Positions 8,662 through 50,780 of a DNA stretch of 52,329 bases are shown here, piece by piece. Source of the stretch: Escherichia phage Mangalitsa. Position 1 is the first letter of the stretch. Every line of letters begins with the position of its first letter. The translations under genes were made by a program, and so were the position numbers. The stretch is from the sequence record NC_048799.1. The stretch is one strand, 5' to 3'. A model generated the notes under the pieces. The model worked only from the letters and a program-made list of their open reading frames with translations. It was not told the DNA's origin and ran no database searches.

Positions 8662-8924
8662 AAGTTGAAGAACTTGCAGACCGCTTGGCGGCAGCAAAGA
8701 AAGAGCTTGCAACACATGCTACACGTGTTAATTCTCTTAAAGCACTCCCTTCTGGTGAGGAAATCTCACTATTCACAGACAATATTTGGTTTTCAATGAA
8801 TCGTGCACAATTTATTGAGATTCAGGACCAACGTTTGGCTGAACTGGAGCAGAAAGTTGCCAGTTATGAGGGTTTACTGCAAACTTTACAAGCAACACTG
8901 GACCAGGAGCTGGGAAATGTCTAA
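8658..8924 (+). CDS. hypothetical coiled-coil protein
   Basis: ORF; Leu/Glu/Ala-rich heptads. Confidence 0.5.
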   Translation: MKVEELADRLAAAKKELATHATRVNSLKALPSGEEISLFTDNIWFSMNRAQFIEIQDQRLAELEQKVASYEGLLQTLQATLDQELGNV

Positions 8925-9315
8925 TGTTAAGTTGGGCCAACGCTCACTTGACCGACTCAAGGGTGTAAATCCCTCATTAGTGGCAGTTTTCAAGCGTGCA
9001 TGTGAAACAATGCCGTTTGATGTAACTGTTCTTGAAGGATTGCGCACTTATGAGCGCCAACAAGAGCTTTTAAAGCAGGGTGCAACCAAAGTTTCAGTTA
9101 GCCGACACATGTCAGGCAATGCTTTAGACATTGCACCATATCCAATTGACTGGAATGACCTCGAACGATTCCAAATTGTAGCTGAACACATGTTCAAAGC
9201 CGCAGAAGAGCTTGGAATTGTCATTCGTTGGGGCGGAACATGGGAGCGTTCATTCACTAAGCCAGTGAAATGGGCTAAATTCCTAGACGCACCACACTTC
9301 GAACTTCCAGCATAA
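8917..9315 (+). CDS. peptidase M15 family, T5 Lys-like L-alanyl-D-glutamate endopeptidase (endolysin candidate)
   Basis: SRHMSGNALDIAPYPIDWNDLERF, IRWGGTW and PHFEL match the zinc-peptidase signature of T5-type endolysins as recalled; ATG 8917 overlaps upstream stop. Confidence 0.7.
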   Translation: MSNVKLGQRSLDRLKGVNPSLVAVFKRACETMPFDVTVLEGLRTYERQQELLKQGATKVSVSRHMSGNALDIAPYPIDWNDLERFQIVAEHMFKAAEELGIVIRWGGTWERSFTKPVKWAKFLDAPHFELPA

Positions 9316-12734: not shown

Positions 12735-12764
12735 GTCGTTTGTTAAATCAGAGCAGTTCTGAAA

Positions 12765-12784
12765 CATTAGTTGAATGTGAAAAG
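12765..12784 (+). promoter_or_regulatory. phage-RNAP-type promoter CATTAGTTGAATGTGAAAAG
   Basis: Motif family member upstream of the acidic protein gene. Confidence 0.55.
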
Positions 12785-13196: not shown

Positions 13197-14041
13197 GTTG
13201 CCAAGGGCAAACTTGAGAAGCTAAGCTAATTCGATCTGGCACGCACTGGAAGATTTCCGGTGCTGCCTTGAACCCATTCCGGCGTGAGTGGGCTTCAATG
13301 AGCATTCTTGTGATTAGAGTTGGGAGGTAGGCCGATGCCCAATCTCGTGGCCCAGACAAGAGTGTTCATTGAAGTTATTTCAATATGGATGTACAGTAGG
13401 ATGAGAAGCTTCTCCGATAAGAGGAGTGAAAGTAGCTGGAAGGACATGCCCACAGAACTGACCGAGACCATTACAGTAGTAGCGATTCACTACCGCGAAA
13501 CAGTATTGAAATTGGCAACGGTTCATGCGGAAGGGCATCAGTGAAATCTACGTTCAGTGCGCGTGGTGAAATGAAGGAGTAGTGTCCTGAGAATTAGCCC
13601 TGTCTGGTTAAATGCCAGAGTCCATATTAAAGTAACTGGAAACTATTCCTGTCAGGTACTCCTATAATGTCTGAAACGGAGTCAGGTCGCACCTGGTAGC
13701 CGAGGCTATTTACCTACAGATGGATACCTGACAGAAGTAGTTTTCTGAGTCTTACGACGGGCCTAAACTGCCTGGAGTTATTGCGACTGTTTTATTCATT
13801 TAAAATAAATGCAAATGATTCTGAAATGCGAGTTGCGGCTTAATTAAATTTGAGTCCTCTCCGTGGTCTTCCAATCCCATGTAACCAAATTTGGCGCATT
13901 GTGGCTTCGAGATGTGATTAATAAATCGGAGCAATAATTAATTTGTATTCTGCGATGCAGGGCAGGCTTAAGTCCCTCAGTGCGCGTAGGGATGTGATAG
14001 AGTACAAACTTAATTATTAACCTAACCTATAGAGAAACATT

Positions 14042-14296
14042 ATGGAAAGCATTGCCGTATTAATTGTTGGTGTTCTGTTGTTTGCTGCATACATGATTCC
14101 AACTCTCATTGCATTTAGTCGTGGTCATGCTTCCAAGTGGGGCATTTTCATTACAAATCTGTTACTAGGTTTAACAGGAATCTTTTGGGTTGCTGCATTA
14201 ATCTGGTCGCTGTCCAATAAAGGTCAGCAACAATCTCTTGTTGTAAATGTTGGCAGTAATAATGTCAGCAATGTATCACAAAAGGATTCGCTTTAA
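14042..14296 (+). CDS. superinfection-immunity-like small membrane protein
   Basis: Two predicted TM helices; MIPTLIAFSRGHASKWGIFITNLLLGLTGIFWVAALIWSL fits the A..R.H....I..N.LLG.T.I.W..A.IW pattern I recall for this family. Confidence 0.5.
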   Translation: MESIAVLIVGVLLFAAYMIPTLIAFSRGHASKWGIFITNLLLGLTGIFWVAALIWSLSNKGQQQSLVVNVGSNNVSNVSQKDSL

Positions 14297-14543
14297 GTGA
14301 ATTGCCCTGAGCATGGAAATAAACTGCTCTAACCGATGGTATCTACAAAGGTAGATTAAATCAGGTTGCCTGTTGGTACTTGGGTTCAACACCTGCTTGC
14401 ACTCGCAAAGTAGTGCCTTGTACCTGAGATGAAGTGAGTCGGGACCATCAATCCCACGTTATGTCAAAACACAGTAGGCGACTCACAGATTCTACAAGCC
14501 TCGCAGTTTGGGAAAACCTGCGTTACCAAAACCCACCTCATTC

Positions 14544-14639
14544 GGACGAGTAGCTCAGAAGGTCTGCTCCAGAGCTTAGTCAGGTAGAGCAATCTGTTCG
14601 ACAGATGTGTCGTTGGTTCGAATCCAACCTTGTCCACCA
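14544..14639 (+). tRNA. tRNA-like gene with an expanded D region; candidate anticodon UCG (Arg) if the anticodon loop is GTTCGAC
   Basis: 7-bp acceptor stem GGACGAG/CTTGTCC, canonical T-arm GTTGG-TTCGAAT-CCAAC, discriminator A and encoded CCA; D-arm-like GCTT-AGTCAGGTA-GAGC preceded by about 20 extra nt; 93 nt before CCA. Confidence 0.4.
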
Positions 14640-14669: not shown

Positions 14670-14810
14670 ATGGATTTTGATGCACTTGATAACTTAGACT
14701 TCGGTGCTGCCGAAGAAGCAATTGAAGAACTGAAGAAGAAACAGGACGAAGAAGCAATCGTTCCTGGTGCTGGCGACAACGACTGCTCAAGTGGTGCGTG
14801 CGCCATCTAA
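14670..14810 (+). CDS. hypothetical small acidic peptide (46 aa) with Cys-containing C-terminus
   Basis: GGAG RBS; MDFDALDNLDFGAAEE...GAGDNDCSSGACAI. Confidence 0.35.
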   Translation: MDFDALDNLDFGAAEEAIEELKKKQDEEAIVPGAGDNDCSSGACAI

Positions 14811-14818
14811 GGTGAATC

Positions 14819-15055
14819 ATGCAACAGCTTAAGTCAATCTTTCTTGGCGTCTTGACTGCATTGGGTATTCTCCTTGCAGTGTTCCTCAAAGGCAAAAGCT
14901 CAGGCAAAGCCGAGGAGCGCCAGGAAGCCAAAGAGAAGCAATTCGATTCCATTAAAGAATCTATCGAGATTAAAACGCATGTTCAGAAAGAAGTGTCTAG
15001 CAGTTCTGATAGCAATGTCGATAGTGAGTTGCTCTCAAAGTGGGTTCGTAAGTGA
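14819..15055 (+). CDS. small membrane-anchored protein, possible i-spanin-like
   Basis: N-terminal TM IFLGVLTALGILLAVFL followed by a charged helical region; AAGGTG RBS. Confidence 0.4.
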   Translation: MQQLKSIFLGVLTALGILLAVFLKGKSSGKAEERQEAKEKQFDSIKESIEIKTHVQKEVSSSSDSNVDSELLSKWVRK

Positions 15056-15188
15056 TTACTGCATGATTGCACAACCAATATATTTGGATGTTGCAGAAGT
15101 GAAAGTTTTGTCACGCGAAACCAAAACACAGATTTTAGTCCACAATGAAACGTGGGCACAAAAGTGTTCGAAACTTACCCGACAGTGA
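14979..15188 (+). CDS. possible o-spanin-like lipoprotein overlapping the preceding gene in the +1 frame
   Basis: MFRKKCLAVLIAMSIVSC: positive n-region, hydrophobic core and lipobox-like IVSC; starts inside 14819..15055 and extends past it; rare codons weaken the call. Confidence 0.3.
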   Translation: MFRKKCLAVLIAMSIVSCSQSGFVSDYCMIAQPIYLDVAEVKVLSRETKTQILVHNETWAQKCSKLTRQ

Positions 15189-16085
15189 GTGAACAAGACG
15201 GACGTCTATAACTTCCCACATAAAGTCGAGGGAGTGCGCGACTTTAAATAACGAGACTCTAGCCACTTGTGGTATGGCAGGTGTAATTCCTGCAAGTTGC
15301 TCTGGGCATAACAATTGAAATTGCTGCCTCGCATTGAACGCGAAAAAGTTCAGGTAGTCACTTCCTAGAACAGTGGCCGGGAACAGACCTAGACAAAAGT
15401 GCTTGAGAACGTTAGCTCTGTCTTGCCAGCATTAATGGCACGTTGGCCGCGTAAAGGCCACAGCGTCTGACCAACGTATCGGTCAACCAAATTCAACGGA
15501 TTCGTAGAGTTAATGAAACCTGCACGATGGGATAGGGATGAAGCATCCGAGGCCGACTGTGTAATTGTGAACGCGGAGTTCACCGAATCCACCAAATCAA
15601 TGGGCTAGTGCAAATGTCAGTCACTAGAAGATGTGTTGCAAAACGTCTTCCATGATGTGCAAAGTGTCAGTCACGTGCCCACCACTTTCCTAACAGTTAT
15701 GCCTCTGTTCAAAAGGCTCATGCGAGCGTCTGGCATACCGTAGCGATACGGCTTAGTTGCGCTGATTGTGTTGTGTCGAAAGAAAGTTCAGGCTTTCGTT
15801 TGAGTTCCTCCTCATCTCGAAGTTAGCTGGATTCAAAATCCAGACTATGTTCCTATTCACATGAAATATGCAAGTCGAGGGTTCTTAATATCTGACATAG
15901 GTATTAAGCGGGTTTATACTTTTCCCCGATGGTCCCCATAAACAAGGTTGATTCACTTGGGCGGTTCGAATCAAATTTAATAAGTGTCTTGGCCGCAGTG
16001 GAAACATCATTTAAGCCAATTTATTGTAATGTTCGTAATAGTCCACGTCAGGGCACTTACTTAAATTTTATCTAGAGAGAGAAAC

Positions 16086-16307
16086 ATGAAAACTGCTGAA
16101 ATTGCCGAAGAGATTTATATGGCCTTAATTGCCAACCAAATTACAAGTGAAGTCCTGCACATGGATATTGAAGAAGTTCGCAAGGCCTTTGGTGGTTTTG
16201 CAATCTTGTCAATCGAAGCTGCGGAAGCACTGACAAACACGTACAACCATCGTGAATACGAGAAGCGGTCTGTACTAAATGCGTCGCTTCAAGCGTCATT
16301 AAAATAA
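16086..16307 (+). CDS. hypothetical protein
   Basis: ORF with GAGAGAGA RBS. Confidence 0.45.
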   Translation: MKTAEIAEEIYMALIANQITSEVLHMDIEEVRKAFGGFAILSIEAAEALTNTYNHREYEKRSVLNASLQASLK

Positions 16308-48773: not shown

Positions 48774-49859
48774 ATGGCTAAAGGCTATTCTTTAGACGCG
48801 TTGGTGCAAGAGCACTATATGAAGTCTAGTACCAACCTGGATAATATAAATATCGACACCCTTACAGGAATGGATAGTGTTGGAGTGTATTACCAGTCAT
48901 ACAACGCTTATGCCATACTTGCAAATAATTACCCTCCAGGTGCGCAAGCAGGTACTTTGGAGGTTATTCCAACAAACGTAGGCTCTGCGGGTCGTGTGAC
49001 ACAAAGATATACAAACTGGCAAGACCTTCGTATGTGGGTGCGCGGCCAAAGTGGAAGCACGACGGCGGCCGATTTAAGTTTTAGCCCGTGGGTGGAGTTT
49101 ATAAATGCCAACAACATTTATAATGCCATCTATCCGATTGGTATTGTTCTCAAGTTTGATAACGCCACCAACCCAAACAACTCCTTCACAGGAACTGTGT
49201 GGCAACAAATCACAGATGGTCGTGCTGTTCGTGCTGCAACTTCTGCTGTGGCTGGAGCTACCGATGGACAGATTGGTTCTGTAGCTGGCAGTGATTCTGC
49301 ATCAATCGCTGTAGCCAACCTCCCATCACACACCCACAACATGCGTAACCATACCCACTCTATTGCGTCCCACACGCACACTATGGCCCATACGCACTCA
49401 ATAAACCACGACCACGGTGCGGTAACATCGAGTTCGGCTGGTGCTCACACACACAGCTTGAGTGGCACTGCTGCTTCTGCTGGGAACCACAACCACAACC
49501 AGGGCGTTGCATGGGAGCATGGTGGCGACACGCAGTATGGCTCTGTTACTGTTGGTAACAAGTCGCGTCGCCAGGACTGGCTTGATGGTGGTAACAACCA
49601 GTATCCTAAGACTTCAACCAACGGTGCTCACACACATAGTGTTAGTGGTACTGCAAACTCTGCTGGCGCTCACACGCACTCTGTAGACCTGCCTAACTTC
49701 ACAGGCACAAGTGGTGGCTCCAGTGCTGCTAACACAGGCGGTACTGCCCTGACGACTGGTGCACCTAGCTCCAACGAATCGGATGCAACTGGCGGCGGTA
49801 CTGCCTTAACCGTCCGTAACTCATCTCACTACTATGCCCTCTGGAAACGAGTGGCTTAA
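48774..49859 (+). CDS. tail fiber distal protein with His-x-His repeats
   Basis: HTHNMRNHTHSIASHTHTMAHTHSINHDHG and two further GAHTHS repeats, resembling metal-coordinating HxH motifs of myovirus fiber tips. Confidence 0.55.
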   Translation: MAKGYSLDALVQEHYMKSSTNLDNINIDTLTGMDSVGVYYQSYNAYAILANNYPPGAQAGTLEVIPTNVGSAGRVTQRYTNWQDLRMWVRGQSGSTTAADLSFSPWVEFINANNIYNAIYPIGIVLKFDNATNPNNSFTGTVWQQITDGRAVRAATSAVAGATDGQIGSVAGSDSASIAVANLPSHTHNMRNHTHSIASHTHTMAHTHSINHDHGAVTSSSAGAHTHSLSGTAASAGNHNHNQGVAWEHGGDTQYGSVTVGNKSRRQDWLDGGNNQYPKTSTNGAHTHSVSGTANSAGAHTHSVDLPNFTGTSGGSSAANTGGTALTTGAPSSNESDATGGGTALTVRNSSHYYALWKRVA

Positions 49860-49866
49860 GGAAATC

Positions 49867-50208
49867 ATGGAACGCTTATCCATTCAGATGTTTCTCGACC
49901 TCATGCACCAATACGGCGTTTGGCATGGATTGCTGGCTGGCCTGACGGCTCTAATCCGTGGGGCATACGAGAGTGAGGGTTTAAGCAAGGCGTTGCTGGA
50001 TGCGACGCTATGCAGCTTAATCGGCCTGTTTGCATTTCAGGTCGCTGGCACATTTGAGACTTTCACGACTAACGTCACTATGCAGTTAGTTCTTGCGATT
50101 GTTATCGGTGTGATTGGTGCAAACCTCATTATCACAACTGTCAGGGAAAGTTTCTCTGGCGCAATCAAACAACTTAATCCTTTGACGTGGTTCAAGAAGG
50201 CACGATGA
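49867..50208 (+). CDS. putative holin
   Basis: Three predicted TM segments, basic C-terminus, AAGGAA RBS; immediately upstream of a cell-wall hydrolase. Confidence 0.45.
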   Translation: MERLSIQMFLDLMHQYGVWHGLLAGLTALIRGAYESEGLSKALLDATLCSLIGLFAFQVAGTFETFTTNVTMQLVLAIVIGVIGANLIITTVRESFSGAIKQLNPLTWFKKAR

Positions 50209-50225
50209 AATGATAAGGAACTCGA

Positions 50226-50780
50226 ATGCTATCATTCAAAGTTCTTGCACTTCTGACAGCTTTAGTTCACATCAACGCCCCAGCTTCGGTTGGGGCAGTG
50301 AATTCTGCTATTACAGATTTTGCAAGTCATTCCTATTTAAATGGAAGTCTGAAACTATCTTCTTCACAACGCAAAGAGCTAGAATGCTATACTAAAGTAA
50401 TCTGGTACGAAGCTCGTGGTGAAGATAAACATGGAAAGATTCTGGTAGCTAATGTCGTCCGTAATAGAACAGAGTTCGGGAAGCCATTCGCTAACACCGT
50501 TTGTAATGTTGTCTACCAACGCAATCAATTTGCATGGACACGAGAAGCAAAGAAGAAGAATGCTCAATGGAAGCATGTAGCAAAGATTAATTATGCCACA
50601 GAACAACAACAAGTTCTGGACACCATTAATGTTGCAATCTCTTTTGTACTATTTAATCAACCCTCTATCACCAAAGCAACTCACTTTTGTACAGCATCGG
50701 AGAAGTGCAACTTCAAGAATGTCAAAGGTCTGGGCCGCTATGGTGGACATAAATTCTATGAGTATCTAGGAAATCTGTAA
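50226..50780 (+). CDS. SleB-type cell wall hydrolase with N-terminal signal or signal-anchor sequence
   Basis: [29 protein letters not shown]...[17 protein letters not shown] matches the SleB/CwlJ catalytic-domain pattern; hydrophobic N-terminus [24 protein letters not shown]. Confidence 0.65.

Follow-up and report, generated by a model that had tools for sequence, protein, structure and literature searches.

Two overlapping genes of Escherichia phage Mangalitsa (Chaseviridae, Carltongylesvirus) very probably encode the two-component spanin of this phage, organised in the overlapped architecture, with an inner-membrane component (i-spanin) of 78 amino acids and an outer-membrane component (o-spanin) of 69 amino acids. 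The window that was analysed is the whole stretch of 52,329 nucleotides (sequence record NC_048799.1), and all coordinates of Mangalitsa features refer to it. Both genes are real, co-conserved and dual-coding. Their function in spanin-mediated lysis is suggested by the localisation signals present in the two products, by the spanin-labelled families that they match and by the occurrence of distant family members in lysis cassettes. An earlier sequence-only reading had proposed an overlapped i-spanin/o-spanin pair at this place, and that proposal is supported here by matches to PHROG families, by homologues in lysis cassettes, by the catalogue of Kongari et al. 2018 (PMC6139136) and by a UniProt protein name.

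Annotation and earlier knowledge

The spanin pair of Mangalitsa is already known and ordinary, since it has been annotated in Mangalitsa itself and catalogued for relatives. The 69-aa product and the UniProt entry A0A5B9N711, which is named O-spanin (Escherichia phage Mangalitsa), have 100% sequence identity. Kongari et al. 2018 include the related phage phiEcoM-GJ1 in their catalogue, among the overlapped two-component spanins, with an i-spanin at 14724–14961 of that phage (78 aa, predicted coiled coil at residues 26–58), an o-spanin at 14884–15094 (69 aa) and an overlap of 77 nt (PMC6139136). There, the phiEcoM-GJ1 o-spanin is grouped with that of PM1, and the o-spanins of PY100, HK639, mEp390 and AF form a separate family (PMC6139136). 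Experimental work on spanins has been done essentially only with lambda Rz/Rz1, supplemented by complementation tests for the T4 pair and for T1 gp11 (PMC6139136).

Beyond correct annotation, the significance of the case is small. It illustrates two documented points, namely that gene callers routinely miss overlapped o-spanins and that spanins need not adjoin the holin. The pair would complete the lysis gene set (holin, hydrolase and spanin) of a phage family that is being considered for biocontrol.

Anatomy of the two reading frames

The following features make up the locus:

14809..14814, plus strand: Shine-Dalgarno sequence AAGGTG of the i-spanin gene, 4 nt 5′ of the ATG, read from the sequence
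14819..15055, plus strand: i-spanin gene, 78 aa, ATG start, from the ORF and sequence
14834..14887, plus strand: codons of the predicted i-spanin transmembrane segment SIFLGVLTALGILLAVFL, best 18-residue Kyte–Doolittle window
14979..15188, plus strand: o-spanin gene, 69 aa, ATG start, in the +1 frame relative to the i-spanin gene
[quoted passage not shown]
15021..15032, plus strand: o-spanin lipobox codons I-V-S-C, found by a pattern scan

The i-spanin begins with MQQLK, which is followed by a hydrophobic segment, SIFLGVLTALGILLAVFL, covering residues 6–23 with a mean Kyte–Doolittle value of 2.62; the 78-aa protein with an N-terminal membrane anchor that had been described from the sequence alone is thus present. 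The tail after this segment is 55 residues long and charged, contains neither Cys nor Pro, and carries at its C-terminal end the conserved motif VDxEL..W.R. Only one Lys (K5) precedes the transmembrane segment, while a conserved KGKSSGK and then a mixture of acidic and basic residues follow it. As the flanking charges are nearly balanced, the N-in/C-out orientation is ambiguous by charge. The N-terminal tail of the HK639 i-spanin homologue is net negative.

The second gene is the +1-frame, lipoprotein-like ORF that had been reported to overlap the first one and extend past it; it runs from 14979 to 15188 and reaches 133 nt beyond the i-spanin stop. The open frame that holds it extends over 14874–15188, and the ATG at 14979 is taken as the start. 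This ATG has no clear Shine-Dalgarno sequence, with only a GAGA at −15 as read from the sequence. The overlap contains the last 25 codons of the i-spanin and its stop, and on the other frame the signal peptide and the first mature residues of the o-spanin. The product begins MFRKKCLAVLIAMSIVSC, which comprises a basic n-region (MFRKK), a hydrophobic core and the lipobox IVSC, with Cys18 (15030–15032) as the predicted lipidation site and Ser at +2. The mature o-spanin has 52 residues, including two further Cys (C28 and C63) and one Pro.

Several caveats that accompanied the sequence-only reading concern these proteins, and each is correct as an observation without being an objection. The i-spanin is indeed short, yet the pair has 55 + 51 = 106 periplasmic residues in all, which lies within the 62–300 found for catalogued spanin pairs (PMC6139136). 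The o-spanin is not Pro-rich, its mature part having a single Pro, but the catalogue includes many o-spanins with predicted helices or strands (PMC6139136). The i-spanin has no periplasmic Cys and the o-spanin has two, and this is the commonest combination among spanins (PMC6139136). Rare codons, the third point, do occur in the overlapped third of the o-spanin gene: the low-usage codons AGA, CTA, ATA, TCG and GGG fall mostly in the part where the i-spanin frame limits the choice. Taken as a whole, the o-spanin gene has a CAI of 0.608, but the value of its o-only part, 0.669, falls inside the range of 0.64–0.82 seen for the long genes of the Mangalitsa genome.

AlphaFold2 models were produced for single chains from 14-sequence alignments of o-spanins and their partners. 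The i-spanin is modelled essentially as one long helix (residues 2–61 and 65–74), with pLDDT of 76–87 in the transmembrane segment and low confidence (about 55) outside it. The mature o-spanin is predicted to be a compact small helical domain, with pLDDT of 94–97 for residues 31–60. In BFVD, the o-spanin model matches only phage proteins that are labelled o-spanin or unnamed, and a Foldseek search of the same model against the PDB returned nothing, the best E-value being 4.2.

Conservation and selection in close relatives

Ten close relatives, 88–98% identical, were aligned with Mangalitsa: phiEcoM-GJ1, ST32, flopper, SKA49, MLP1, PO103-1, DE15, PYps23T, PYps3T and one metagenomic contig. Neither ORF is disrupted in any of the ten. 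Among the 11 genomes, none of the 77 sites of the overlap varies; variable sites make up 13–16% of the flanking coding DNA (25 of 160 in the i-only part, 15 of 112 in the o-only part and 19 of 140 in the upstream gene). The longest invariant run in the alignment of the 3.7-kb neighbourhood, 14976–15058, is the overlap itself.

According to the Nei–Gojobori method, pN/pS of the i-only part is 0.35 in the i-spanin frame versus 0.73 and 2.27 in the other frames, and that of the o-only part is 0.08 in the o-spanin frame versus 0.52 and 1.52 in the others. Stops are absent from the proposed frames of the relatives and numerous in the alternative ones. From the intact frames, their low pN/pS values and the lack of variation in the overlap, it follows that both frames encode proteins under purifying selection. 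The conservation of both frames in relatives had been named beforehand as a check on the proposal, and it holds.

Directly 3′ of the o-spanin stop, homology among the close relatives breaks into indels and unrelated sequence. Some relatives carry a 1-nt deletion that changes the C-terminus of the o-spanin, and in DE15 this end is altered beside an inserted HNH endonuclease gene. Such changes are what might be expected if the two genes were relics, still translated and no longer needed, in a phage that has the outer membrane broken otherwise, for instance through mechanical failure or the action of a disruptin-like peptide. The variants, however, touch only residues past the last conserved Cys, and relics would hardly show such strong purifying selection (pN/pS of 0.08 for the o-spanin), an invariant overlap and the conservation of the pair across six genera. 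We regard decay of this kind as very improbable, and a functional spanin remains the preferred reading.

Homologues and family assignment

The i-spanin matches the PHROG family phrog_1026 (Rz-like spanin) over residues 1–78 with an E-value of 7.6e-19, and the o-spanin matches phrog_1275 (also Rz-like spanin) over residues 1–67 with an E-value of 3.3e-18. Scans of both proteins against Pfam (E up to 1) and NCBIfam gave no spanin family, only sub-threshold noise. Since neither Pfam nor NCBIfam yields a match, the pair and lambda Rz/Rz1 are not related in sequence; the pair would be a functional analogue of Rz/Rz1 and not a member of their sequence families.

A search of 5.8 billion predicted proteins with the o-spanin retrieved just two near-identical entries, so the deep alignment was not based on a protein-database search; tblastn against phage genomes was used instead, and with the 69-aa o-spanin as a query it gave 103 phage records. 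In IMG/VR, a pattern scan recovered no more than five close relatives, the Mangalitsa genome itself among them. Several relatives annotate only the 78-aa ORF, and the i-spanin is labelled "endolysin" or "hypothetical" in several.

Within Chaseviridae, the pair is syntenic upstream of thyX (flavin-dependent thymidylate synthase) in six genera: Carltongylesvirus, Sabourvirus (4HA13), Faunusvirus, Suwonvirus (PM1), Loessnervirus (Y2, SSEM1) and Myducvirus. In 4HA13 and Faunus, the genes have the separated arrangement with a 4-nt overlap. The o-spanin is recognisable in 13 more distant phages, where the Cys of the lipobox, another two Cys and an HN motif do not vary. An alignment of 14 o-spanins (A1) has six invariant positions, C18, C28, I34, H55, N56 and C63, and none of the 14 has Asp at the +2 position after the lipobox Cys. 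The corresponding alignment of 14 partners (A2) shows an N-terminal transmembrane segment, a juxtamembrane G-x-S/K motif and the C-terminal VDxEL..W.R.

In six unrelated phages, a homologous overlapped +1 pair lies directly 3′ of the endolysin gene. The genes that precede it are holin–holin–endolysin in HK639 and mEp390, holin–endolysin in Fostie and Shy, endolysin in Pseudomonas phage AF and amidase–holin in Idiomarinaceae phage 1N2-2.

It might be supposed that only the 78-aa ORF is a gene and that the +1 lipobox ORF is a chance open frame. Gene callers skip this frame, and several relatives have just the 78-aa ORF annotated; it is represented by only two entries among the 5.8 billion predicted proteins, its ribosome-binding site is weak and its first third contains rare codons. 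Yet a chance frame would not be expected to combine a pN/pS of 0.08 (against 0.52 and 1.52 in the other frames) with a lack of stops in any relative, six positions that are invariant across 14 diverse phages, a phrog_1275 match at 3.3e-18 and an AlphaFold2 mature domain with pLDDT above 90. The under-calling of overlapped o-spanin genes is, moreover, documented, as 196 of 528 were missing from annotation (PMC6139136). Excluded by pN/pS and by conservation across families, the idea of a chance frame has next to no probability left, and the o-spanin is treated as a gene in what follows.

Genomic setting

The candidate lysis partners and the nearest upstream promoter match are located as follows:

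8917..9315, plus strand: M15 peptidase, early-region endolysin candidate (PF13539 Peptidase_M15_4, 5.7e-09; phrog_465 endolysin, 4e-55)
12762..12781, plus strand: nearest upstream match to a phage-RNA-polymerase promoter, 1 mismatch to the phiEcoM-GJ1 consensus
49834..50208, plus strand: holin (PF05106 Phage_holin_3_1, 5.6e-08; phrog_126 holin/anti-holin, 5.7e-18)
50226..50780, plus strand: cell-wall hydrolase, late endolysin candidate (PF07486 Hydrolase_2, 2.9e-15; phrog_938 endolysin; N-terminal signal-like segment)

The orthologue of the M15 peptidase in phiEcoM-GJ1 is gp21, annotated as endolysin. The late cassette consists of the holin and the Hydrolase_2 protein, followed directly by an nrd gene, which bears out the earlier remark that it offers no spanin candidate. 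The pair itself lies 35 kb from the holin and is therefore not genetically linked to the holin and endolysin here. Such linkage is typical of two-component spanins but not obligatory. The distance, likewise noted earlier, is real, but it is no objection because the T4 spanins are unlinked as well.

The pair sits in a block of early/middle-type genes, about 500 nt 3′ of a homologue of the superinfection-immunity family PF14373. The promoter consensus was derived from the nine promoters annotated in NC_010106 (phiEcoM-GJ1). On the plus strand between the promoter match at 12762 and the pair, there is no terminator-like site except a weak one at 14127, and the spanin pair is probably transcribed from the putative phage-type promoter at 12762. 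Scans of the flanks gave no noteworthy sigma-70 promoter or terminator, both counts being at or below the shuffle expectation.

Spanin candidates elsewhere in the genome would have spoken against the pair. A lipoprotein-signal scan with a PROSITE-like pattern, run from every ATG, GTG and TTG in six frames over the whole 52 kb window, gave two matches: the o-spanin ORF and a stretch inside the tape-measure gene, which was rejected because it is out of frame and has no hydrophobic core. The window thus contains no other credible ORF with a lipoprotein signal, and the same scan led to the rejection of two further ideas, a unimolecular spanin and a second lipoprotein at another place in the genome.

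The neighbourhood also suggests a different role for a real envelope-protein pair. In Chaseviridae, its main function might be non-lytic, the o-spanin-like protein being a superinfection-exclusion or receptor-masking lipoprotein (as Cor and Llp are) that acts with a membrane partner and is expressed together with the neighbouring Imm-like gene. The 35 kb that separate the pair from the holin/hydrolase cassette, the apparent sharing of a phage-promoter unit with the PF14373 homologue about 500 nt upstream, the modelled fold of the mature lipoprotein (compact and helical, not an extended chain rich in Pro) and a topology of the membrane partner that is not settled by charge would all suit such a role. 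However, in six unrelated phages homologues of both proteins stand where a lysis cassette carries its spanins, Mangalitsa offers no further candidate outer-membrane disruptor with a lipoprotein signal, and unlinked spanins have a precedent in T4. Besides, an exclusion lipoprotein needs no obligatorily co-conserved overlapping inner-membrane partner. A mainly non-lytic role is for these reasons considered unlikely, and the spanin assignment is retained.

In five genera, a conserved acidic protein of 46 aa, ending in D-C-x(2-4)-C-(K/A)-I, adjoins the i-spanin, with its stop either 8 nt before the i-spanin start or overlapping it; in Mangalitsa its ORF occupies 14670–14810. It is conceivable, though improbable, that in Chaseviridae the spanin pair left the lysis cassette and came to lie among envelope-related genes in a phage-promoter unit (the superinfection-immunity homologue and then a tRNA-like element), and that in these five genera it gained the 46-aa protein as a tightly coupled third partner, which could regulate spanin synthesis or activity. 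If this were true, the relocation and the 46-aa partner would amount to a novel means of setting the time of outer-membrane disruption without dependence on the holin.

Proposed mechanism

The mechanism outlined here is drawn from work on lambda and T4 as summarised in PMC6139136. The membrane topology, lipidation, complex formation, disulfides and outer-membrane disruption activity of the Mangalitsa pair are all what we infer by this analogy. The N-terminal helix of the 78-aa i-spanin would anchor it in the inner membrane, with the charged helix of 55 residues projecting into the periplasm. The 69-aa o-spanin would be exported and, after cleavage by signal peptidase II, lipidated on Cys18. 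By the +2 rule of the Lol pathway, Asp after the lipidated Cys causes retention in the inner membrane. Since no homologue has Asp after the lipid-modified Cys, sorting to the outer membrane is expected, and the o-spanin, with its Ser at +2, would be placed in the inner leaflet of this membrane.

In the helical domain of the o-spanin, the two conserved Cys probably form disulfides. [quoted passage not shown] At the time of lysis, the holin (49834–50208) would trigger, and the hydrolase (50226–50780 and/or 8917–9315) would remove the peptidoglycan. The spanin complexes thus freed could then gather in clusters and break the outer membrane, probably through its fusion with the inner one, so that lysis is completed. 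Given its compact, disulfide-capable helical o-spanin and very short i-spanin, the family would lend itself well, as a minimal system, to structural studies of spanins.

Comparison with known spanins

The closest counterpart is the pair of phiEcoM-GJ1, consisting of gp31 and an unannotated o-spanin, which has the same lengths (78 and 69 aa), the same 77-nt +1 overlap and the same position upstream of thyX. Its o-spanin is 96% identical to that of Mangalitsa, and the few substitutions make no substantive difference.

The homologues of HK639, mEp390, Fostie, AF, Shy and 1N2-2 are much more divergent, with 10–32% identity for the i-spanin and 29–41% for the o-spanin. These pairs also have a +1 overlap, of 77–92 nt, and share the lipobox, the two Cys, the HN motif and the C-terminal D/E-L..W.R of the i-spanin. 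Their i-spanins are mostly 82–94 aa long (69 aa in 1N2-2), compared with 78 aa in Mangalitsa. They also differ in location: these pairs are situated directly after the holin and endolysin, in the lysis cassette, whereas the Mangalitsa pair is 35 kb from its holin. P2 LysB/LysC, the experimentally tested prototype of the +1 overlapped architecture (PMC6139136), is found in the lysis cassette too; no sequence relationship between it and the Mangalitsa pair was detected.

T4 PseT.3/PseT.2 resembles the Mangalitsa pair in being unlinked from the holin and endolysin (PMC6139136). It also has no Cys in the i-spanin and two in the o-spanin, both of which are essential in PseT.2 (PMC6139136), and the T4 o-spanin, like that of Mangalitsa, is predicted to be helical (PMC6139136). 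The T4 genes, however, are separated rather than overlapped, and their products are larger (117 and 83 aa). No sequence match between the two pairs was seen, and the PHROG families matched are different ones.

Like the pair described here, lambda Rz/Rz1 combines two proteins: one belongs to the inner membrane and has its transmembrane segment at the N-terminus, followed by a periplasmic part that is helical, and the other is a lipoprotein of the outer membrane whose gene uses the +1 frame (PMC6139136). The mechanism proposed for it, in which periplasm-spanning complexes act after the removal of peptidoglycan (PMC6139136), is the one that would apply to Mangalitsa. In contrast to the Mangalitsa o-spanin, which is modelled as a folded helical domain, Rz1 is Pro-rich and unstructured, and its gene is fully embedded in Rz. 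Rz has 153 aa, two coiled coils and two Cys, and the Mangalitsa pair is about half the size of the lambda one.

Genes and elements around the spanin pair

The spanin pair lies about 500 nt downstream of a homologue of superinfection-immunity proteins, and the i-spanin ATG is located 8 nt beyond the end of a short acidic ORF. Two peptidoglycan hydrolases are encoded in the window, one in the early region and another, bearing a signal-like segment at its N-terminus, next to the holin.

Features of the window discussed in the text
8917-9315, peptidoglycan hydrolase, M15_4 peptidase, early region
14042-14296, plus strand, two-transmembrane protein of 84 aa, PF14373 Imm_superinfect (1.4e-17)
~14544-14639, plus strand, tRNA-like element, Rfam tRNA model, 27.9 bits
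14670-14810, plus strand, acidic ORF of 46 aa, product MDFDALDNLDFGAAEEAIEELKKKQDEEAIVPGAGDNDCSSGACAI
50226-50780, peptidoglycan hydrolase, Hydrolase_2 (SleB-like), adjoining the holin

The 84-aa protein also matches phrog_1039, "immunity to superinfection" (3.1e-29). The 46-aa ORF, with a pN/pS of 0.05 among the close relatives, has no match in Pfam, NCBIfam, or PHROG searches. Its homologues in Faunus, Myducvirus PA_03, Y2, and SSEM1 are situated immediately upstream of the i-spanin start or overlap it, and all of them carry D-C-x(2-4)-C-(K/A)-I as their C-terminal residues; no homologue has been seen upstream of the spanin pair in 4HA13, PM1, and the lambdoid phage HK639.

The tRNA-like element scores slightly below the gathering threshold of the Rfam tRNA model (29 bits), the match covers model positions 9-63 only, and ARAGORN finds no tRNA here. 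On visual inspection, GGACGAG/CTTGTCC forms an acceptor stem with ACCA after it, and an additional D-arm-like insert lies 3′ of the 5′ strand of this stem. The orthologue in the phiEcoM-GJ1 record is annotated as tRNA-Arg that "may contain an intron"; the Mangalitsa genome paper gives a tRNA count of 0. Further upstream, two apparently non-coding stretches, 13881-13957 (77 nt) and 14363-14452, are invariant and almost invariant, respectively, across the 11 aligned genomes, a conservation comparable to that of the spanin overlap. A weak tmRNA-like Rfam match near these stretches (13736-13843, E 0.23) is probably due to chance.

The o-spanin 3′ end and the downstream region

The o-spanin gene is immediately followed by an ORF-poor region of about 900 nt (15189-16085), where indels and unrelated inserts distinguish the close relatives. 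Short blocks in it, e.g., 15416-15459 and 15949-15987, are invariant. A search of this region against Rfam with E up to 1 gave no match. In DE15, an HNH endonuclease gene begins at the o-spanin 3′ end and alters the last codons of o-spanin, and in PM1 the equivalent gap includes tRNA-Cys. In three related records (loci L009, L019, and L022), a 1-nt deletion close to the o-spanin 3′ end (equivalent to window 15170-15188) converts the terminal KLTRQ to NLPDSE, altering the protein only beyond the last conserved Cys.

Annotation of relatives

The i-spanin is labelled "endolysin" in the public records of PYps23T and PO103-1, many records of relatives either leave the o-spanin uncalled or call it from an internal ATG, and a 73-aa ORF, the counterpart of window 16086-16307, carries the name "tail tape measure protein". 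These cases (in L002, L020, L019, and other records) are annotation errors. Among 5.8 billion predicted proteins, only two o-spanin entries are present.

Spanin architecture in other Chaseviridae

Homologous spanin pairs of two genera overlap by the 4-nt ATGA only, i.e., they have a separated architecture and a different frame offset, whereas in the remaining Chaseviridae genera the overlap amounts to 77-113 nt.

Homologous spanin pairs with the separated architecture
Sabourvirus, 4HA13 (L012), 2208-2692, 4-nt overlap
Faunusvirus, Faunus (L013), 1208-1701, 4-nt overlap

This spanin family covers two spanin architectures, as do other families described by Kongari et al. (PMC6139136).
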